Shown: positions 11 through 12,647, counted from the first letter of the stretch. The stretch: 32,000 bases of DNA from an uncultured Candidatus Peribacteria bacterium (GCA_964466055.1 CAYXLW010000005.1:49508-81507); one strand, 5' to 3'. The notes: generated from the letters alone by a model not told the origin. A program made the numbers and translations.

Positions 11-1303
11 CTAATTGAGCTTAAAGGCTTTGTTATTGGTATTTTGTTCATAACGTTTAATAATTAATTGACAAAAAATAGGCTCTATCTCAACTAGAAA
101 TGCTTTACGTTTCATTTGATCACAAGCAAGCATTGTTGAACCTGAGCCTCCAAAAAGATCTAAAACATTATCACCAATTTTGGTACATCGTCTTAGTGGT
201 CTTTCATGTAATGAAATGGGTTTCTGAGTACTATGTTGATATTGAGTACTTGGAAGTCTTTTTTCTAACCAGATGTTTATAATATCCAGTACATCTTCTA
301 ATGCTCGATTTCCTGTTCCTACTTCTTTATTCAAAATTTCATTTAAGTTCTTTGTTCTTGGATCAAGATATGGTTTACCTCTAGTTGAATACACACAAGA
401 TTCATATACCTTATTGAACGCAATTTGAGGAGTCGGGTTTTGGTTATCTTTTATCCAAAGGCATACTCTTTTATTATTAAGTCCTACTTCCTTATATAAA
501 GATTGTATTAAGCCTATATAATTCTCATCACACCAATAGAAACAATGACAATCCTTTTCTGACACTGTTAAAGCATTTTCCATTGTTTGTTTTAGAAAGG
601 CTTTGTATTCAGCTTCTGTTTTAGAATCATTCACCTTACCTCCATAATTCTTCTTGCCTCCAATTCCTTTGTCATAAGAAAGTCCAATGTTATAAATTGG
701 ATCACAATAAATCATATTGATCTTAGTATCTCCAACCAATTTTTTTACTACTTCTATATCTGTGGAATCACCACAGATTAATTTGTGATTTCCTAATTGG
801 TAAATTTCCCCTTCTTTTACGGTTATTTCTTCTTCTACAATTTTTTCCAGTTCTTCTTCGACATTGAAGTTATTATCTTCAATTTCTAGCACATCGTCCC
901 AAATGGAACTTAAGTCATTGTCATCAAACCCTACATTTAATAAAAGCTCAGTATCGAACTCTTTTAGTATGTCCCATTCCCATTCCCCATGGTTACGATT
1001 TAAACGAAGATTAAGCTCTTTTTCTTGATCTAAATCTGGAATATTAATATAGGCTACAGGGACTTCTTTTATTCCCAGATCTCTTGCAACTTTAAGCCGG
1101 AAATGTCCTCCGATAACTATATTCATCCTTTCCTTAGCAGAATTAACTAAAATAGGATCAACCATCCCGAACTTTTGGACACTTTCTCGCAGATGTGAGA
1201 TTTCTTTATCACTCCACTTTCGGGGATTGTATTCGGCTGATTTTAGCTCTGATATTGGAACGTATGTTACTTCTAAATTGGAATTGTTATTAAACTGTTT
1301 CAT
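11..1303 (-). CDS. ParB-like nuclease domain fused to a DNA methyltransferase (beta-class N6A/N4C type)
   Basis: 430-aa ORF. The N-terminal part looks like a ParB/Srx domain (EYNPRKW, GGHFRLKVARDLG). The C-terminal half has a motif IV-like DPIY (IYCDPIYN) lying upstream of AdoMet motif I (LFGGSGST), which is the beta-class motif order. Confidence 0.8.
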   Translation of the reverse strand: MKQFNNNSNLEVTYVPISELKSAEYNPRKWSDKEISHLRESVQKFGMVDPILVNSAKERMNIVIGGHFRLKVARDLGIKEVPVAYINIPDLDQEKELNLRLNRNHGEWEWDILKEFDTELLLNVGFDDNDLSSIWDDVLEIEDNNFNVEEELEKIVEEEITVKEGEIYQLGNHKLICGDSTDIEVVKKLVGDTKINMIYCDPIYNIGLSYDKGIGGKKNYGGKVNDSKTEAEYKAFLKQTMENALTVSEKDCHCFYWCDENYIGLIQSLYKEVGLNNKRVCLWIKDNQNPTPQIAFNKVYESCVYSTRGKPYLDPRTKNLNEILNKEVGTGNRALEDVLDIINIWLEKRLPSTQYQHSTQKPISLHERPLRRCTKIGDNVLDLFGGSGSTMLACDQMKRKAFLVEIEPIFCQLIIKRYEQNTNNKAFKLN

Positions 1304-1533
1304 TTTTTAAAAATTAAATAATAAAATAATATTTTTTGGCTATGGCTTAAGAATTTTCTGATTTCATAATTATAAAAAGTTAAAAAATAAATATAAGTGT
1401 CAGCCATAGCCTTTGAAACTTCTGGTATTTCACGACTGCTCCAGAATGTTTCGCGAAGCAATTTAACTTTCTCATAGACATAAGGCTTAACATGCAAAAG
1501 CTGGTTTTGGTTGATTGATACTGTTGAAGCCAT
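1300..1533 (-). CDS. hypothetical small protein, 4-nt overlap with the methyltransferase start
   Basis: 77-aa ORF whose stop overlaps the downstream ATG, suggesting translational coupling. The N-terminal half looks protein-like; the C-terminal half is low complexity. No recognisable motif. Confidence 0.3.
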   Translation of the reverse strand: MASTVSINQNQLLHVKPYVYEKVKLLRETFWSSREIPEVSKAMADTYIYFLTFYNYEIRKFLSHSQKILFYYLIFKK

Positions 1534-1633
1534 AATTCATAGTATTTCACATGTTGATTATCATTTTTTTTACATTTTTATTTTTTATCTTCTTAATAAG
1601 ACATCTTTACTTAAAAATTTTCATGCAACTAAA

Positions 1634-1663
1634 AAAACTCAACTTAACTTTAAGCTGAGTTTT
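1634..1663 (-). terminator. putative intrinsic terminator after the MBL hydrolase gene
   Basis: Hairpin AAAACTCA/TGAGTTTT (8 bp) plus an inner 4 bp around a tetraloop, flanked by A/T runs. It lies about 50 nt past the stop at 1714. Confidence 0.35.
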
Positions 1664-5493: not shown

Positions 5494-5510
5494 CTGACAT
5501 TCTAAAAAAA
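5494..5510. repeat. IS left terminal inverted repeat CTGACATTCTAAAAAAA
   Basis: Exact reverse complement of 6799-6815. Confidence 0.85.
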
Positions 5511-5624
5511 ACTCGATCGATAGGCAAAGATTTTGTTTATAGGTAGAGGGAAATATGACTTGAAATAAAACGAAAAAAAAGTACAAATTGTTTGGGGACA
5601 GCTGTACTTTTTAACGTTTTTAAC

Positions 5625-6807
5625 ATGAAAAAGTTCTCAAATTTTGCGCACAATGTCAAAAGTTTTTCAGAAATATTCACGAAGCCCAGTTACAAAATAT
5701 TTAAAGGGATTGTAGAAGCGATGGTCAAAGAAATGGATTACTCGCAATCCAATTTGTCATTGTGTAGCGGAAAAACACTTGGACAAATACAGTATTTTTT
5801 TGCTAAAGCAAAATGGAGTTTTACGAAACTCAATGGATATCGTCTTAGATTTATGAGAAACAAGCCAAACTTCAGGGATAGAAAAAGTGATTATGCGGTA
5901 CTTGATGGTACTGTAACAACAAAAGATAAAGATAGTGAGTTCAAAGGTTTACTATCCGCAGTCTACTCAAACCGAGATAAACGGATCGTAAATGGCATAA
6001 AACTCTTTGGAGGAAGCGTACTGACTCAAGATGGAGTGAAATACATTGTAGACTTTCTTTTCTACATAAAGAGCATCTGGCTGTCAGAAAATCAGGCTTG
6101 GAAAATGTTTGCAAAGAAAGTTGCATCAAAAACTTCTGCATATCTTTTTGTTCTGGATTCTGGATTTAAAAGCCCATATATAATTGAGTTCATCTTTCAT
6201 ACTCTCAAACGTCATTTCCTACTACGTATTGGGAAAAATCAGATATTCCTCATGCAAAATCAGGAAGCCAAAAAATATTCCAAGAAACTAAGAAAACTCT
6301 GGGTTTTCCCAAAGGTTATTCTTTCTTCTTGGCACAAGGTTTTTCCAGAGAATGTTACGGTTATTGTATACCATAGAAATGGATTTCTTGATCCCATTGT
6401 GCTTGTTGCCTCATTGGAAATCACGGAAACACAACAAGCTTTTGATATTGTTCAAATCTACTTCAAAAGATGGAGTATTGAGCAACTTTTTAAAGAGGTG
6501 AAATCTTGGTTTAACTTTGAAAAATTTCGCGTCACTTCTTTGCATGCTCTCGGAAAATTCCTCCATCTGGTTGTCTTTATTCATTCTCTCATGTCTACGT
6601 TATTTTTTGAACTCCAAAAATACACTAAACTCTTTGAGATTATACGCTGAGATTATACGCTTTGTGGTAAAGAAATCCCGTAATATCATTGAGCTTACCG
6701 TGGTCAGTTTGAAACTCTTTTTCCAATCACTTCATTCCATTTGCTTTACCCATCATCCTTGGCTACACAATCACCAAAAAATCATTTTACTCACACACTT
6801 TTTTTAG
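5625..6807 (+). pseudogene. DDE transposase, frameshifted by a 13-bp tandem duplication
   Basis: The likely start is ATG 5625 (MKKFSNF...). YFKRWSIEQLFKEVK fits the Y-(2)-R-(3)-E-(6)-K signature of IS4-type transposases. The frame stops at TGA 6648-6650 inside the duplication and continues in the +1-shifted ORF 6517..6807 (EIIRFVVKK...). Removing one 13-bp copy restores one frame of about 389 aa. Confidence 0.75.
6636..6661. repeat. 13-bp perfect tandem duplication GAGATTATACGCT x2
   Basis: Read directly: 6636-6648 equals 6649-6661. The junction creates the TGA stop. Confidence 0.9.
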
Positions 6808-6815
6808 AATGTCAG
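6799..6815. repeat. IS right terminal inverted repeat TTTTTTTAGAATGTCAG
   Basis: Exact reverse complement of 5494-5510. Confidence 0.85.
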
Positions 6816-6816
6816 T

Positions 6817-7737
6817 TCATTGTATTTCTCCTTTATCTTTTAATCTTCTAATATAATTTCTTATTATTTGCTCTTCTGTTTCGATGTTAGTATCACTAAT
6901 CTTTTTTTGTATATTTATAGCCTTCTTCCTAAGACTATCATTTTTACAATCTTCAAGGTTTTTTAAATGTTCTTCTATTGTAACCTTTTTACCATAAAAG
7001 CCCTTTAAAAGTTCTTCTAATTTATAATTGTTAAATCCTTCTGTTATTTTTTCATAACAATCCTTTTCTTTTTTATATTTTTTAAATAATTTCTTTAAAA
7101 TATTTTTTTTGTCTTTTGAAATATCAATAGCCTCAAAATCAATTCTATCCAATTTTTTTTGCATAGGTTTTATTTCTGTTTTCCATGCACTCATTACTTG
7201 CTTCTTTAGCGTATGAGGGAAGATTTCAATAAATAGTCTTCCATTTTTTTCACGTATTTCAAATCCTTTATCATAGATTTTAAAATCTTCTAAAGGAGGT
7301 AATGTAATTCCCTTTCCTTTTTTGTATTTGTAATCAGAGTTTAAACAAATTGGATCATCACATAATTCTTCATGAAACAATACAAATCTCCTAAACATAT
7401 CTTTCATTTTCCCTCCTATATTATAATCTTTATCTTTTGTTAAAGATTCAAATTCTTTATTAAATTTATCCATATTTCTAATCACATAATAATCTTCTAG
7501 ATCTGGATCAGAGCACTCACACATATCTTTAAATATTTCAGCTTCTTTCCTTTTAGTAGGAATATCAAATTTTTTTCTTAAAATTTTAACTTTTTTTAAA
7601 AGTTTTTCATTTTCTAATATGAACATTGCTTCTTTCTTGAACTGTTCTGAAATATCTCCACCTTGGTATAAACGATTTTGTTTATATAAATCATTTATAA
7701 ATTTTTTGTGTTTTTTAACTGTAAATTTCATCGACAT
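6817..7737 (-). CDS. hypothetical Lys/Glu-rich protein
   Basis: 306-aa ORF with no recognised motif. Its stop codon lies 1 nt from the IS right end. It sits 59 nt downstream of the HAD gene on the same strand. Confidence 0.55.
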   Translation of the reverse strand: MSMKFTVKKHKKFINDLYKQNRLYQGGDISEQFKKEAMFILENEKLLKKVKILRKKFDIPTKRKEAEIFKDMCECSDPDLEDYYVIRNMDKFNKEFESLTKDKDYNIGGKMKDMFRRFVLFHEELCDDPICLNSDYKYKKGKGITLPPLEDFKIYDKGFEIREKNGRLFIEIFPHTLKKQVMSAWKTEIKPMQKKLDRIDFEAIDISKDKKNILKKLFKKYKKEKDCYEKITEGFNNYKLEELLKGFYGKKVTIEEHLKNLEDCKNDSLRKKAINIQKKISDTNIETEEQIIRNYIRRLKDKGEIQ

Positions 7738-7796
7738 TTTTATAAAAAATTACGATGAACAGTATAATACAAATTAAAAACTTCTAAACATGCTTT

Positions 7797-8132
7797 TTAA
7801 ATAATCCTCATTTCAATTTCTTTCCAATTATTCTTATATTCAATCGCTCTGTCACAAATGTAATAATCTGCTACCACCTTTCCTTTATCTCTATAAATCT
7901 CATCATAAAGGATATTATTGTCTTTTAAGAACTGTATCATCTCTGTTTCATATTTCTCATTGTCATCAAAGTAGTCACTGTTGCTTCTGCAAGAATAGAT
8001 GATGACATACCAACCTTTTGCCTTAAATTTTTCTATCACTTCCTTACCGCCCTCTTCCAATTCTCCAATCTCTGGGAATTTGTCTTTACAGATAGTACCG
8101 TCAAAGTCTATTGCTATACGTTTTTGTGTCAT
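7797..8132 (-). CDS. HAD-superfamily mini-phosphatase (DxDxT type; nucleotidase / polynucleotide 3'-phosphatase-like)
   Basis: 111-aa ORF with motif I IAIDFDGTI and motif II-like IIYSCRS. It has a 4-nt ATGA overlap with the upstream beta-CASP gene. Confidence 0.6.
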   Translation of the reverse strand: MTQKRIAIDFDGTICKDKFPEIGELEEGGKEVIEKFKAKGWYVIIYSCRSNSDYFDDNEKYETEMIQFLKDNNILYDEIYRDKGKVVADYYICDRAIEYKNNWKEIEMRII

Positions 8133-9373
8133 ATTTTAAGAGGCTTATTATCTGGTAAAATTGTTACATTAGAGAAGTATTCTTTGTACTTCTCTGGTTC
8201 TTGTGTATGAACGGGGATAACTGTTTTAGGATTAACTGCATTAACTAATCTTTCCATTTCATTTACTCCACCATGTCCTGAAGTATGGATATGGTAAAAG
8301 TTCATTTCTTTTTCTTTACATAAATCCTGTAAGTCAGAATCTTCTAAATATCCCTCCCATAAACCCCAAATGAAATTAGCGTTCTTTAATGGATACAATC
8401 TATCAAAGAATTTTCTTGAACCTCTATTGTCCTTAAACAAGAAAACTAAATCTTTTTTTCTTTCTGCCATTTCATCAGATGTTATTTTAGATTTTCTATA
8501 TCTGTAAACATTTTCTTTATATCCATTATCTAAAAGAACCTTTGTTTGATTAGGTGAGAAGTACACTCTTATGTTTCTCCAATCATATTGTGGAAGTGTT
8601 TTTGATTTATTTCCTAACTCTTCAAGTACAAATGCTGTGTATGGATCAATTATAAGCTCCTTCTTTGCTTTAGTGGTTGCTTTATAGATGCTTACTAATC
8701 TATCTATATTCTGTGATGCTACTGTAATTAATGATATATTTTCTTGTTTTTCAAAAATCTTTATCAATGCTTTTTCAACGGCTTCTTCTGTGGGATACTT
8801 TTCATTATTTCTAGTAATTCTTGTACCTTCTAAAAGTAAGATGTTTATATTTTTAGGGATATCTTTTAGAAGTTTTGGGAATAGATATTTTTCTCTTCCT
8901 GCTACCCCCCTAAAATCTCCACTAAAGAATATTTGTTTATCTTCATGTTCAAATAGAAATGCGTAACTATCAAATGCAGAATGATTTACTCTGTATGGCG
9001 TTATTTTAATATCTCCAATATTAAAAGATTTTCTATCTTCAAATAATTGGATATTCTCTATCTCTATGCACATATCTCTTAAAAACAAGTTTGATATTTT
9101 TATAATTGATCTAGCTCCTTCACTCATAAATACGGGAACAGTTTTTGGTATTTCGTTCATTTCTCCGTAATGGTCTTGATGTCCATGTGAAAGTAATACT
9201 GCCTTTTGTTTCTTATCATCCTCTACTATTTTCTTAAAGTTTAAAGTTTCTCGTTTCTCGTCAGAGAGTGGCATTCCCATATCAATGATAATGTTTGTCA
9301 TCTCTGTGCTTACAGAAATACAAGTTCCTCCTATTTCTGATGAGCCTCTTATTATTTTTAGTTCTATACTCAT
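8129..9373 (-). CDS. beta-CASP family metallo-beta-lactamase nuclease (RNase J / CPSF / Artemis-like fold)
   Basis: 414-aa ORF with MBL motifs HGHQDH, VNHS and SGDF, plus beta-CASP motif A (LLLEGT), motif B (HTSGH) and motif C (PVHT). Confidence 0.8.
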   Translation of the reverse strand: MSIELKIIRGSSEIGGTCISVSTEMTNIIIDMGMPLSDEKRETLNFKKIVEDDKKQKAVLLSHGHQDHYGEMNEIPKTVPVFMSEGARSIIKISNLFLRDMCIEIENIQLFEDRKSFNIGDIKITPYRVNHSAFDSYAFLFEHEDKQIFFSGDFRGVAGREKYLFPKLLKDIPKNINILLLEGTRITRNNEKYPTEEAVEKALIKIFEKQENISLITVASQNIDRLVSIYKATTKAKKELIIDPYTAFVLEELGNKSKTLPQYDWRNIRVYFSPNQTKVLLDNGYKENVYRYRKSKITSDEMAERKKDLVFLFKDNRGSRKFFDRLYPLKNANFIWGLWEGYLEDSDLQDLCKEKEMNFYHIHTSGHGGVNEMERLVNAVNPKTVIPVHTQEPEKYKEYFSNVTILPDNKPLKI

Positions 9374-9376
9374 GTT

Positions 9377-10309
9377 TTAATTTTTACTAAATATTTGATT
9401 ACTAAAGTTTTTCCTAAATTCTTCAAGAGAGAAAATGTTTTGTTTATAGAGTCCATATCCCATGAAACTTGCTACTGCAAATCTTAGATTTGCATGTTTC
9501 ATTGGCTCTAATTTGGATAATATCTGATTAAGTTTAGAACTATCTGGGTCATGGTTTGCTAGTATAAATACAAAATCTGGTTTTTCTTCAGATATTTCTG
9601 TTATATGGTTTGGGTTTTTATCCAATGATTTTATTAATCCTAAATCCCTTTTCTGCTTAAATGATTCAATCATTTCTTCCTTAATATTTTGAAGTCTGGA
9701 ATCATCTGATAAAAAAGATTCCATATCTCTAATATGTTTATCTATACTGGCACTTCCTTTAAGTGCACCATCTCCATATTTCTTTTCTATAAAGATTAGT
9801 TTAGGTTTATATCCTTTAAAAAACCTCCTAGAACATCCGTCTGATTCCCACTCAAAAGCTATGGCGTCAAATCTTGCTCCTATATCTGTATATTCAATAT
9901 CACAGATAAAGTAGTCTGTTGCTTGGTTAAGATTATTCTCTCTAACCAATAACTGCTGAAACTCTCTCTCATCTTTAGGGTGTTTGGTAAACCATAAATC
10001 CATTTCATGTTTTAACTGTGGAATTAGGTTTATCCATTTTTGTACTATTTCTTCGTTTGTTATTGTTTTCGATAATCCTTCTACTAGTTCTTTATTATGC
10101 ACTAAATAATTTTTATCAAAGTAGATTTCATACCTGTTTTCATTCAGTTCTTTTATCTTTATCAGATTTCCTCCTCGATAATAAATGTTTACTGCATTTT
10201 CTCTAATTTCTAAATCTAAGGTTAAGCATTCTTTACATTGTCTTAAGAATGGGTTTAACATTCCTTCCTGTAGGTTAAGCATGAACTGCTGTGATAGTTT
10301 TCTAGTCAT
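9377..10309 (-). CDS. hypothetical protein with a possible PD-(D/E)XK nuclease-like core
   Basis: 310-aa ORF, 3 nt upstream of the beta-CASP gene. The central segment FICDIEY...RFDAIAFEW...LIFIEKKYG could supply a D...ExK arrangement. This is only a motif-level guess. Confidence 0.55.
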   Translation of the reverse strand: MTRKLSQQFMLNLQEGMLNPFLRQCKECLTLDLEIRENAVNIYYRGGNLIKIKELNENRYEIYFDKNYLVHNKELVEGLSKTITNEEIVQKWINLIPQLKHEMDLWFTKHPKDEREFQQLLVRENNLNQATDYFICDIEYTDIGARFDAIAFEWESDGCSRRFFKGYKPKLIFIEKKYGDGALKGSASIDKHIRDMESFLSDDSRLQNIKEEMIESFKQKRDLGLIKSLDKNPNHITEISEEKPDFVFILANHDPDSSKLNQILSKLEPMKHANLRFAVASFMGYGLYKQNIFSLEEFRKNFSNQIFSKN

Positions 10310-10329
10310 AATTGGGCATATTAAAAAGT

Positions 10330-10461
10330 GGGTAAACCGTTCTGGCGACCCTCATCTTCGTCCACATTGTGGATTCCAATTTGGCAGAAGCGATTTACCC
10401 GCTTTTCCATTGGAATCCCAATATAAAAATTTGATGTGGTTATGCCGAAGATGAAAGTCGC
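10330..10461 (-). ncRNA. structured 5' leader / candidate cis-regulatory RNA or riboswitch of the 10309->7797 operon
   Basis: GC-enriched patch in an AT-rich spacer. Pairings in plus-strand coordinates: 10345-10360 with 10446-10461 (16 bp, continuous only on the minus-strand RNA because 10350/10456 and 10351/10455 become G-U). Also 10362-10367 with 10434-10439, and 10371-10380 with 10409-10418 (10 bp perfect). Also 10388-10392 with 10400-10404, whose loop GGGUAAA pairs with UUUACCC at 10330-10336, 20 nt before the ATG. Confidence 0.5.
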
Positions 10462-10467
10462 AACAGC

Positions 10468-10496
10468 ACTTTACTAGCTTAATTTTCACTAATCAA
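10468..10496 (-). promoter_or_regulatory. putative sigma70-type promoter TTGATT-N17-TAAAGT
   Basis: On the minus strand the -35 is at 10496-10491 and the -10 at 10473-10468. The predicted start falls about 7 nt downstream, at the first base of the outer helix (about 10461). Confidence 0.35.
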
Positions 10497-10603
10497 GCCG
10501 TAGAGAAAAATTCTTTTAAAAAACATGCTTTTGTTGCATGTCATATATAGTCGCATTATAACTGGATATATACGGATTTTATATTAAAAAATAGGCACAA
10601 CTT

Positions 10604-10633
10604 TAAAAAAAGTTGCAGGTTTTTAGTGCAACT
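10604..10633 (-). terminator. intrinsic terminator-like hairpin with no obvious upstream gene
   Basis: On the minus strand: AGTTGCA-loop(9)-TGCAACT followed by TTTTTTT. Confidence 0.4.
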
Positions 10634-10896
10634 AATCTATAATTTTACATATTTTGTAAAAAACAAAACTCCTTTAACCCCATAAAAGTCAGATGACGAA
10701 TAATGGCTTTAAATAAGGATATTGCCAACATTATGAAGCTTGTTTTAGCCTTATACTAAGCAACATTAATACTTGCAAGTCTATGAACCCTTTTTATGGT
10801 GTCTCATTTGTCTCATTTTTTATCGAAAGGGTGTTAGACTGAAATGCTCTACCAAGTAAAATAAAAAGATATATCGAAGATCGATATTTTTATTTA

Positions 10897-10925
10897 TTGA
10901 ATTCCTACAAGAAACTAATTACGAT
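10897..10925 (+). promoter_or_regulatory. putative promoter TTGAAT-N17-TACGAT for the Cys-rich gene
   Basis: Hexamers read directly. A perfect palindrome ATATCGA-AGA-TCGATAT (10871-10887) sits just upstream. Confidence 0.3.
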
Positions 10926-10958
10926 TCTAACAGCTAAAGTCCATCATAAGGCAATAAC

Positions 10959-12647
10959 ATGCAAGCAAAATGTACATTATCTGGGGAAATATTTGATGTT
11001 TCTGATCATGAAATTGAACTTCGAAAAAAAATCAATTTTGGAAATACATTGCCGAGCATGTTACCAAAATATCGCTTTCAATACCTTGGAGCTTTTTGGC
11101 CACAGTGGAATCTTCATAAAAGAAATTGTGATAAAACTGGTAAGCCAATTATCTCAATCTTTCGTCCAGATTGCCGATACCCTGTATGGCACAGAGATGA
11201 ATGGATAAAATATAATTCACCTCCATCACAAGATTTTGATTTTTCACGTTCCTTTTTTGAACAAGTAGCGGAGCTTTTCCCAAAATGTCCAATTCCACAT
11301 ATTTTCCAAAGTAATAACCAAAACTGTGAATACACAGATGATTGGTACCATAGTAAAAATTGTTATTTATGTCATTCAGGTCAAAATAATGAAGATTGTA
11401 GATATTGCTATGGATGCGATAGTATAAAGAACGTTCATGGTGGAGTTTTCTCATTCAAATCTGAATTTTGTTACGACATTATTAATTGTAGTAGTTGTTA
11501 CAAAAGTCGTTTTCTTCTAAATTGTAAAAATGTTACAGATTCTGCTTTTTTATATGATTGTAGAGACTGTAGTGATTGTCTTTTTTGCTTCAATCTTCGT
11601 CATAAAAAATACTGTTTTGGAAACCAACAACTAAGTAAAGAAGAATTTGAAGAAAAGAAAAAAGAGTGGAGTTTTTCATCGTATAAAAATTATGAAAAAG
11701 CAAAATTGTACTTTGCTAGAATGATGGTCAAAAAAGCTTGGCATAGAGCTATCCAAATAGATCTGTGTGAAAATTCTTCAGGGAATTTTATCCACCATTG
11801 TAAGGATTGTGAGAACTGTTATATGCTTTCTTATCACGAAGCTTGTGCTAACACAACTTTTTGTGGACCAAATGCTAAATTTATTTTAGATTCAATTGGA
11901 ACGGTTGGTAGCGAACTTTCTTTTATGTGTTCACTTCCTGTTTATTGTTACAATACAATCTTCTGTTTTAGTGTTGATAATTGCAAGTTTGTTGAATACA
12001 GTGCATATCTTCAAAACTGTGAATATTGTTTTGGATGTTGTGGGCTGTTTAGGAAAAAATATTGTATTTTTAATAAACAGTATTCAAAGGAGGAGTATGA
12101 GAAACTAGTTCCAAGAATTCGTGAACACATGGGAAAATTCCCCTCTACCTTTGGGAGAGGGATTAGGGGTGAGGATGAATGGGGACAATTTTTCCCTCAA
12201 AGTATGGCACCTAATCCTTATAATGAAAGTTTTTCAGGATATCACTTTCCTCTTAATTCAGAATCAAGCCAAGAATTTTGGCAAGCTGGTCCATTGGAAA
12301 GAATTAATATGAAAACTGCTGAAATAAATGAGCTTCCAGATTCTCTGGAATCACTTACAGATGAAAAAGAAGAATGGCTTATTACCCAAGTTTTTTGGGA
12401 TGACAAATATCAGCGTCCTTTTCAAATTCAAAAGGATGAGATTAAGTTTATAAAAATAATGAATGCACCTCTTCCTCATTGTTATTACATCAATCGTATT
12501 CAAAGTAATTTTAAATGGATGCCTTTTAATGGAGAGCTTAGGGAGTCTAAATGTGCTAAGTCTGGGAAGATGATCCATACGAATTGGGCAAAAGAGTATG
12601 ATGAAAGAATTTTGAGCGAGGAGGAGTACTTGAAATTAGTGAAATAA
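10959..12647 (+). CDS. modular cysteine-rich repeat protein of unknown function
   Basis: 562-aa ORF with dense CxxCxxC motifs (CRYCYGC, CSSCYKS, CRDCSDCLFC, CKDCENC, CEYCFGCC). It has two internally duplicated Cys-rich blocks, each ending in KKYC(F/I)xNxQxSKEE(F/Y)E. These are flanked by related N- and C-terminal modules. Confidence 0.8.
   Translation: MQAKCTLSGEIFDVSDHEIELRKKINFGNTLPSMLPKYRFQYLGAFWPQWNLHKRNCDKTGKPIISIFRPDCRYPVWHRDEWIKYNSPPSQDFDFSRSFFEQVAELFPKCPIPHIFQSNNQNCEYTDDWYHSKNCYLCHSGQNNEDCRYCYGCDSIKNVHGGVFSFKSEFCYDIINCSSCYKSRFLLNCKNVTDSAFLYDCRDCSDCLFCFNLRHKKYCFGNQQLSKEEFEEKKKEWSFSSYKNYEKAKLYFARMMVKKAWHRAIQIDLCENSSGNFIHHCKDCENCYMLSYHEACANTTFCGPNAKFILDSIGTVGSELSFMCSLPVYCYNTIFCFSVDNCKFVEYSAYLQNCEYCFGCCGLFRKKYCIFNKQYSKEEYEKLVPRIREHMGKFPSTFGRGIRGEDEWGQFFPQSMAPNPYNESFSGYHFPLNSESSQEFWQAGPLERINMKTAEINELPDSLESLTDEKEEWLITQVFWDDKYQRPFQIQKDEIKFIKIMNAPLPHCYYINRIQSNFKWMPFNGELRESKCAKSGKMIHTNWAKEYDERILSEEEYLKLVK
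12140..12174. repeat. GC-rich palindromic mini-element (copy A), embedded in-frame in the Cys-rich CDS
   Basis: CCCCTCT-ACC-TTTGGG-AGAGGG-ATTAGGGGTGAGG. The off-frame translation is SPLPLGEGLGVR; the gene's own frame reads FPSTFGRGIRGEDE. A related inverted copy lies at 30496-30527. Confidence 0.55.

Follow-up and report, generated by a model that had tools for sequence, protein, structure and literature searches.

An RNase J-like beta-CASP nuclease gene paired with an unannotated protein family, and a candidate leader RNA, in a Candidatus Peribacteria genome

Nucleases of the beta-CASP class carry a beta-CASP domain inserted into a metallo-beta-lactamase (MBL) fold, and in their classification a His at motif C marks the RNA-processing members. 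Most PD-(D/E)XK enzymes are DNases, and leaders through which a ribonuclease regulates its own gene are known for RNase III and RNase E. The beta-CASP class also serves in defence, since type VII CRISPR-Cas has taken up one of its RNases, Cas14, for immunity as the effector nuclease (NCBIfam NF045584; PMC13069675). Here we describe a locus in which the gene of an RNase J-like beta-CASP nuclease lies next to that of an unannotated 310-amino-acid (aa) protein, referred to together with its relatives as FAM. The locus comes from 32,000 nucleotides (nt) of an uncultured Candidatus Peribacteria bacterium (GCA_964466055.1 CAYXLW010000005.1:49508-81507), and this whole stretch is called the window. 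Its open reading frames (ORFs) include four co-directional minus-strand genes in the region 6817-10309 (Table 1). FAM and the beta-CASP gene are separated by 3 nt, the beta-CASP gene and a small HAD phosphatase gene (mini-HAD) overlap by 4 nt, and a gene for a Lys-rich 306-aa protein follows after a further 59 nt; these are the coordinates and spacings given in the original prediction for the locus, which was made from the sequence alone.

That prediction also could not assign the combination of genes to a named system, and scans of PADLOC, Pfam and NCBIfam agree. Among the anti-phage models of PADLOC-DB 2.0 and NCBIfam 20.0, none matched FAM, the mini-HAD or the 306-aa protein, and the beta-CASP protein matched only LmuA (19.5 bits) and 6A-MBL (12.7 bits). 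The FAM/beta-CASP pairing corresponds to no PADLOC 2.0 system model and was not found in the literature searched, where queries on beta-CASP, RNase J or MBL defence pairs returned nothing relevant beyond Cas14.

A conserved pair of adjacent genes

To place the locus among its relatives, 85 related loci were assembled and then searched with all four window proteins; the part drawn from the genome collection comprises the best 80 of 218 matches, and ORF calling was crude. Loci are given L numbers below, and individual FAM relatives P numbers. FAM has at least 1,185 relatives (counted as clusters) in bacteria and archaea, none of them with a Pfam domain or a name beyond 'hypothetical'. Among 185,579 species genomes its relatives occupy 218 places; over 25 phyla and one archaeon are represented, with identities typically of 40-50%.

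Inspection of these loci reveals a beta-CASP homologue adjacent to FAM and on the same strand in 63 of the 85. All-against-all clustering of ~1,150 ORFs found FAM in every one of 86 sources (the 85 loci and the window) and the beta-CASP family in 59, while no other family appeared in more than 7. The conserved unit is therefore the pair of FAM and the beta-CASP nuclease, not the trio or quartet originally proposed; the co-occurrence in other genomes that the proposal had set as its own test is seen, in independent loci, for these two genes. Both gene orders occur, with the genes usually overlapping or less than 30 nt apart, and the order follows the FAM clade in 44 of 48 loci. Pairwise distances within the two families are correlated (r = 0.77, Mantel 0/2000), which is consistent with co-evolution of the two sequences. 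The partnership between FAM and the RNase J-like nuclease looks obligate. About eight loci have a split or fragmentary beta-CASP gene. One Verrucomicrobia contig carries, upstream of FAM, a 111-aa ORF (L003:2801-3136) that is a C-terminal beta-CASP remnant with motifs B and C intact, its upstream part having been replaced by unrelated sequence.

FAM also has other enzymes as coupled neighbours, whether in place of the beta-CASP gene or alongside it. These enzymes comprise an ApaH/PrpE-like calcineurin phosphoesterase (L071:1120-1728, L080:8900-9688), a DEDDh (RNase_T) exonuclease (L036, L042, L048 at 11055-12056, and L085), REase-ARP (L004, L005) and a Tri1/DraG-like ADP-ribosylglycohydrolase (L008:3867-4823, L050:6863-7945), and at L071, L080, L008, L050 and L048 the alternative enzyme is translationally coupled to FAM or to the pair. 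Two beta-CASP relatives selected for having no known FAM link (in L133 and L135; 38-40% identity) lie behind unannotated upstream partners of 331 and 245 aa (L133:3009-4004 and L135:3260-3997), joined to them by a 4-nt overlap or a 3-nt gap; BLAST and hhalign against the FAM profile ruled out that these partners are FAM. The 245-aa partner contains a KLILWELKKD stretch that recalls an ExK strand.

Tight, translational coupling of this kind could point to an addiction or toxin-antitoxin-like module, in which one nuclease would be the toxin and its partner would neutralise it or degrade its product, and toxin-antitoxin genes do lie in the flanks of several FAM loci. This reading is very unlikely, however, given that both proteins are large and carry invariant catalytic residues, that either gene order is used, that FAM also occurs alone or with other enzymes, and that the leader described below has no antitoxin-like repeats.

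Table 1. Features of the window around the FAM/beta-CASP pair
Feature	Position (nt)	Strand	Remarks
FAM, 310 aa	9377..10309	-	unannotated family, probable PD-(D/E)XK nuclease core
RNase J-like beta-CASP metallo-beta-lactamase nuclease, 414 aa	8129..9373	-	
Mini-HAD phosphatase, 111 aa	7797..8132	-	BT0820/PNKP-phosphatase-like; optional third component
Lys-rich orphan protein, 306 aa	6817..7737	-	
Leader RNA motif, 141 nt	10323..10463	-	fold, identity among strains, covariation
Helix P1	10446-10461 with 10345-10360	-	
Helix P2	10434-10439 with 10362-10367	-	
Helix P3	10409-10418 with 10371-10380	-	
Helix P4	10398-10402 with 10384-10388	-	
Terminator-like hairpin and U-tract	10323..10351	-	hairpin 10330-10351, U-tract 10323-10327
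Putative sigma-70-type promoter	10468..10496	-	TTGATT, 17-nt spacer, TAAAGT; read from sequence
Complete insertion sequence (IS)	5494-6815		DDE_Tnp_1 transposase at 5592-6650; perfect 17-nt terminal inverted repeats
ParB_N + N6_N4 methyltransferase gene	11-1303		

Predicted enzymes of the locus

The 414-aa protein matches Lactamase_B_2 (1.7e-13) and RMMBL (1.8e-7), both above the Pfam cut-offs, and scores better with RMMBL than with DRMBL, for which only a weak match was obtained (E 0.0016). MBL motifs 1-4 and beta-CASP motifs A, B and C, all of which the original prediction had recognised, are invariant in 48 of 48 relatives (D31, H63-x-H65-x-D67-H68, H131, D153, E182, H363/H367 and H389), with motif C a His throughout. 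The AlphaFold2 (AF2) model (pLDDT 86.7) has the MBL fold with its inserted beta-CASP domain, so that motifs and fold together place the protein in the beta-CASP subfamily. Its top Foldseek match is EF2904 (2az4; E 1e-25, TM 0.77), followed by RNase J from many bacteria and archaea and then by CPSF73 and IntS11; these matches have TM values of 0.64-0.78 and E values no worse than 1e-18, those for EF2904 and RNase J lying between 1e-21 and 1e-25. The top 50 include no DNA-type SNM1 or Artemis structure. The protein falls outside RNase J proper, reaching 93.7 bits with TIGR00649 (cut-off 400) and 71 with NF047419 (cut-off 820); the match is confined to residues 8-242, and the C-terminal domain of RNase J (~555 aa) is absent. 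In JGI records, relatives of the protein bear the label 'ribonuclease J'.

FAM has no match in Pfam, NCBIfam, PHROGs or PADLOC, and a profile search against PDB sequences returned none. Its D148, E175 and K177 are invariant among relatives, as are E114, D137 and E139 in the same core, and its N-terminal alpha/beta domain carries a YYRGG motif that is otherwise invariant and reads YFKGA in P0249 (L136). In the AF2 model (pLDDT 87, pTM 0.85), the core runs helix, three strands, helix, strand (alpha-beta-beta-beta-alpha-beta), with D148 on strand 145-153, E175-x-K177 on strand 170-178, and E114, E116 and E124 on helix 113-126. This is the arrangement of a PD-(D/E)XK active site, namely D...(D/E)xK on consecutive core strands and an acidic residue on the preceding helix. 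The weak Foldseek matches are mostly PD-(D/E)XK proteins (BsmI, NucC, NucS/EndoMS, Mus81, Shedu, BamHI and UL24), the others being DUF1801/DUF5655-like folds for which the aligned part of FAM was not checked. With the D...ExK residues and the topology in place but no significant fold match, a PD-(D/E)XK nuclease fold is likely for the modelled protein, not proven. The D...ExK core first suggested for the 310-aa protein thus stands as regards its residues and its alpha-beta topology, which structure prediction returned as expected; the fold search did not match it significantly to a PD-(D/E)XK structure.

The substrate of the pair is most likely RNA, although DNA is also possible, and the activity itself is predicted. 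RNA is favoured because of motif C and the structural neighbours of the beta-CASP protein. A restriction-like system directed at DNA, in which FAM would recognise and nick foreign or modified DNA and the beta-CASP enzyme would resect it in the manner of SNM1 or Artemis, would suit the bias of PD-(D/E)XK enzymes towards DNA, the restriction and repair DNases among the weak FAM fold matches (BsmI, NucS/EndoMS, Mus81, BamHI, Shedu, UL24), the frequent position of the loci beside restriction-modification genes, and the weak DRMBL match. We consider it unlikely, since the invariant His of motif C, the better score of RMMBL, and top structural neighbours that all act on RNA speak against it.

The 111-aa protein has all four HAD motifs (D9-F-D11-G-T13, S47-x-R-S, K83/K85 and D94), the first of which is the DxDxT nucleophile motif noted in the original prediction. 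It scores below the curated cut-offs for Hydrolase_3 (19.8 versus 20.9 bits) and HAD_PNKP (13.6 versus 27.6), and matches the BT0820 HAD family of NCBIfam at E 3e-12 (47 bits, cut-off 165); the nearest solved structure is 2obb. Mini-HAD homologues at the level of BLAST were absent from the 85 loci. A profile built from the mini-HAD and three similar proteins describes a 110-140-aa HAD encoded by an overlapping third gene in L007 (Omnitrophota), L033 and L078 (both Zetaproteobacteria), and aligned with the 111-aa protein these three share DFDGT, S-x-R-S and K...DDRA; the L007 copy passes the Pfam HAD_PNKP threshold (29.9 versus 27.6 bits). The trio of FAM, beta-CASP and HAD recurs in L087 and L094. 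A 220-aa archaeal HAD near FAM (L001/L002) was not counted, being of phosphoglycolate-phosphatase type and 285 nt away. Because the same kind of HAD follows as the third gene in L007, L033 and L078, the mini-HAD is a recurrent but optional accessory, present in 4 of ~60 pair loci from three groups, rather than part of the conserved unit.

The 306-aa protein, a possible fourth member in the original prediction, is the sole member of its sequence cluster and has no match in Pfam, NCBIfam, PADLOC or PHROGs and no homologue in the 85 related loci. In the sister strain L094, the end of the beta-CASP gene and the HAD gene are 98% identical to the window, and homology ends 8 nt before the 306-aa start codon, beyond which a toxin-antitoxin-like pair follows instead. 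The lack of homologues and the absence from L094 place the 306-aa gene outside the module. The L094 pair (1063-1644, minus strand) consists of 74-aa and 117-aa genes where the window has the 306-aa gene and the IS.

These findings bear on the earlier suggestion that a trio or quartet repairs RNA or heals its ends, with the help of the leader RNA as cofactor. A PNKP-phosphatase-like HAD does follow the nuclease in four loci, one of which (L007) passes HAD_PNKP. The four window proteins, however, have no kinase, ligase or methyltransferase domain of the kind that defines Pnkp/Hen1 or RtcAB systems, and across the flanks of the 85 loci no such RNA-repair family is recurrent, be it a kinase, a ligase, RtcB or a Hen1-type component. 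With the HAD missing from more than 90% of pairs, the 306-aa gene unlinked and the leader confined to one subclade, we give RNA repair hardly any probability.

A structured leader RNA in one subclade

The 190 nt upstream of FAM form a long multi-helix hairpin. The minus strand of 10310-10500 folds at -68 kcal/mol (z = -5.4), and none of 200 shuffled sequences was as stable. The 141-nt motif within it is 100% identical in L086 and L087, against 93-96% identity for the coding sequences of FAM and the beta-CASP protein; at the overall match identity of 94.4%, the probability of zero changes in 141 nt is ~3e-4. Homologues of the leader lie directly upstream of FAM in L095/L096 and in L136, whose FAM proteins are each other's closest relatives and also the closest to that of the window (P0003 is 51% identical to the window FAM, and P0249 59% identical to P0003). 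In L136, the start called for P0249 falls within the motif (88-130), and the true start is probably the ATG at 131 (MARKLS...).

Aligned helix by helix, 29 leader pairs comprise 17 that are invariant, 3 with one-side changes, 9 with compensatory changes and none that is broken, a covariation that rests on two or three lineages. P3 is 100% paired in a MAFFT alignment, and both sides have changed in 4 of its 10 pairs, versus none when the partners are slid. Between the helices lies a conserved unpaired core, AAAGCGG...CCUGCCA. Fold stability and compensatory changes in independent lineages, of which there are only three, bear out the structured leader RNA of the original prediction; as part of a module it is real and upstream, but confined to one FAM subclade. 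No Rfam 15 family reached its gathering score in the window or matched at E values up to 10, the best match in 10200-11000 being SL1 at 18 bits (gathering 75). The leader is thus a candidate new RNA motif, probably of a cis-regulatory class.

The long imperfect inverted repeat that forms the leader could instead act at the level of DNA, as a recombination site or a protein-binding palindrome, and the opposite strand does still score 27 bits with the covariance model. Yet G.U pairs fill 8 of 73 helix cells and would turn into C.A mismatches if the opposite strand folded. The bulges lack symmetry, both the conserved unpaired core and the U-tract are specific to one strand, and each of the three lineages has the element at the same place, immediately ahead of the start codon; inspection by eye found no integron attC core sites (R'/R''). 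A DNA element therefore seems extremely unlikely. Other known elements were also considered and rejected. A type III toxin-antitoxin RNA is contradicted by the lack of a tandem repeat in 10300-10500, and a retron RNA by an operon that encodes no reverse transcriptase domain. The idea of a mobile cassette bounded on the left at ~10497 was discarded since nucleotides 1-52 of L086 match window 10557-10506, so that the left flank is shared, with merely a ~220-nt indel in L086; only the right junction, at ~7745, differs.

Near the FAM start, a terminator-like hairpin with a U-tract is present in all three lineages (-8.2 kcal/mol in the window, -9.8 in L095 and -11.0 in L136), with inner stems that differ among them, and the FAM start codon lies 8-20 nt past the U-tract. 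The 5' half of this hairpin (GGGU) doubles as the 3' end of P1, and only one of the two structures can form at a time. The hairpin presumably ends transcription, and its competition with P1, a short way ahead of the start codon, probably lets the leader set or gate expression. The sequence ahead of FAM contains no Shine-Dalgarno. The putative promoter, at 8 of 12 matches below the threshold of a consensus scan, is kept in L086 despite the ~220-nt indel immediately upstream, and transcription from it would begin on the first base of P1 or right beside it.

Covariance models R1 and R2 found no further leader homologues in ~1.2 Mb of related loci, and upstream regions in the other 80 loci are mostly short and unstructured. 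With the motif absent from more than 80 loci, it is a subclade-specific regulatory element rather than a core part of the pair. A metagenome-wide scan with the core pattern gave 32 matches attributable to chance, none with the full motif or a FAM gene. Strong hairpins upstream of FAM in L036 and L065 are unrelated to the leader; that of L036, an Oscillibacter metagenome-assembled genome, is near-perfect, ~170 nt long (7790-8000; z = -5.3) and unrelated to the window leader in sequence. Separately, L097:925-1170, L098:828-1073 and L131:3025-3270 share a ~250-nt conserved non-coding region upstream of FAM (relatives P0004 and P0002), ~90% identical, which contains GGGGGAAUUCUUCCUGC, loosely resembling the leader core. 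This region showed no covariation and no match to the R1 or R2 models, and may be a diverged counterpart of the leader or a different leader.

Upstream of the promoter, a terminator-like hairpin (10517-10541, minus strand; ACATGC-N7-GCATGT followed by T6) is kept in L086, where an extra AT-rich insertion of ~220 nt separates its counterpart from the leader. It is preceded by no annotated minus-strand gene, and a small RNA or small ORF within 10550-10950 is possible. A 562-aa Cys-rich protein, divergent and alone in its 90% cluster, is encoded on the plus strand at 10959-12647; its one match is weak (PHROG 15341, E 3.6e-5), with none in Pfam, NCBIfam or PADLOC.

Surroundings, proposed function and known systems

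The IS has terminal inverted repeats of CTGACATTCTAAAAAAA at 5494-5510 and 6799-6815. It is inserted 1 nt past the stop codon of the 306-aa gene, and as the repeat ends at 6815 it abuts that gene. An IS directly downstream and a ParB-methyltransferase nearby had both been predicted, and transposase domain, inverted repeats and domain match confirm them; just outside the window, past the methyltransferase, lie a large serine recombinase and HsdM. Together, these four features mark this side of the window as accessory DNA. Across the related loci, 142 flanking proteins include recurring type I and IIG restriction-modification, ResIII, Mrr, Schlafen/AlbA, WYL/WCX, capP/ImmA and IetA.

Scattered occurrence, exchange of partners, gene decay and the kind of neighbours all speak for an accessory function in conflict or defence rather than for housekeeping. 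The housekeeping alternative would be an RNA-turnover or quality-control module, perhaps for stress, made of an RNase J paralogue and a dedicated adaptor or endonuclease and spread horizontally. Its attractions are the RNase J-like structure of the beta-CASP protein, the 'ribonuclease J' label of relatives, loci that lie among ordinary genes (such as the archaeal L001/L002), and the familiar theme of an autoregulatory leader ahead of a ribonuclease gene. These are outweighed, in our view, by the low RNase J score (93.7 versus 400 bits in NCBIfam) and missing C-terminal domain, by patchiness (218 matches among 185,579 species genomes), by neighbourhoods that vary completely, by frequent pseudogenised copies, and by partners swapped on both the FAM and the beta-CASP sides, such that RNA turnover is possible but on the unlikely side.

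Our favoured model, to which we give about an even chance, is that FAM and the beta-CASP nuclease form a modular cut-and-degrade accessory module for conflict or defence, the defence role being suggested by context. FAM would be a metal-dependent PD-(D/E)XK endonuclease that uses its N-terminal domain for recognition and makes the first cut, with the 5'-phosphate ends that such enzymes leave. From those ends the beta-CASP enzyme would then degrade the nucleic acid, as RNase J does, and in the few lineages where a mini-HAD is translationally coupled it may dephosphorylate ends or nucleotide products. In the window's subclade, the operon would be transcribed through the conserved structured leader. 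If transcription starts at P1, the leader may also shield the 5' end of the operon mRNA as a 5'-terminal helix; such helices block 5'-end-dependent RNases on B. subtilis mRNAs.

Several observations weigh against the favoured model. FAM has no significant fold match (best Foldseek E 0.06, to BsmI in the PDB, and 0.012 in BFVD), and neither it nor the pair matches a PADLOC system. The defence-island context is qualitative, with flank counts that have no background control, and many flanking genes are ordinary. None of 72,556 plasmids or 50,697 phage records contains FAM, and 2 of 2.9 million viral contigs do, so that phyletic patchiness is the only sign of mobility. The leader RNA occurs in three lineages only, one of them truncated at the 5' end, and the stability of P1 (14-16 bp) so far exceeds that of the terminator-like hairpin that a simple switch gated by a ligand does not suggest itself. 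A bolder version, in which the pair is a widespread unrecognised immune system whose RNase J-like effector is licensed by a sensor-endonuclease family, with a riboswitch-like leader in one subclade that turns the system on when it senses an infection or stress signal, is decidedly unlikely.

FAM is a large conserved family that lacks a domain model, a name or a solved relative, and its RNase J-like partner gives a concrete handle on its function. Almost all carriers are uncultured, which explains why the pair was missed; one that is an isolate is Oscillibacter sp. MSJ-31 (L048). Should the pair prove to be a defence system, it would add a beta-CASP RNase effector outside CRISPR type VII. The leader, tied to nuclease expression, may represent a new class of cis-regulatory RNA, and its covariation is clean.

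Comparison with described systems shows both likenesses and differences. The mini-HAD resembles BT0820-type mini-HADs and the phosphatase of T4 and bacterial PNKP in its DxDGT motif and small capless HAD core, with 2obb the nearest structure and an L007 orthologue that passes HAD_PNKP; unlike them, the window copy falls below every curated threshold and has no kinase or ligase partner. The leader resembles terminator/antiterminator leaders (riboswitches, rnc, rne) in that its closing helix shares sequence with a terminator-like hairpin, which together with a U-tract directly precedes the first gene, and differs in its unusually long P1, its restriction to three lineages and the lack of an Rfam match. 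FAM shares with Shedu/SduA and with NucC, the CBASS effector, a probable PD-(D/E)XK core after an N-terminal domain, a patchy distribution, defence-island-type neighbours and weak fold matches (Shedu, NucC), but has no sequence or significant fold match to them, and is paired with a beta-CASP nuclease. Cas14 and the beta-CASP protein match in the N-terminal MBL motif only (25 bits, cut-off 800), and Cas genes or a CRISPR array were seen neither in the window module nor recurring in related loci. There is also a likeness to RNase J and to EF2904, a structural-genomics protein (PDB 2az4), with which the 414-aa protein shares the MBL and beta-CASP fold (TM 0.72-0.78) and, for RNase J, all seven catalytic motifs including the His of motif C. 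It differs from RNase J in its length of 414 aa, the missing C-terminal dimerisation domain and the 93.7 versus 400 bits of TIGR00649, and, rather than being a core gene, it is encoded beside an unannotated partner in variable accessory regions.

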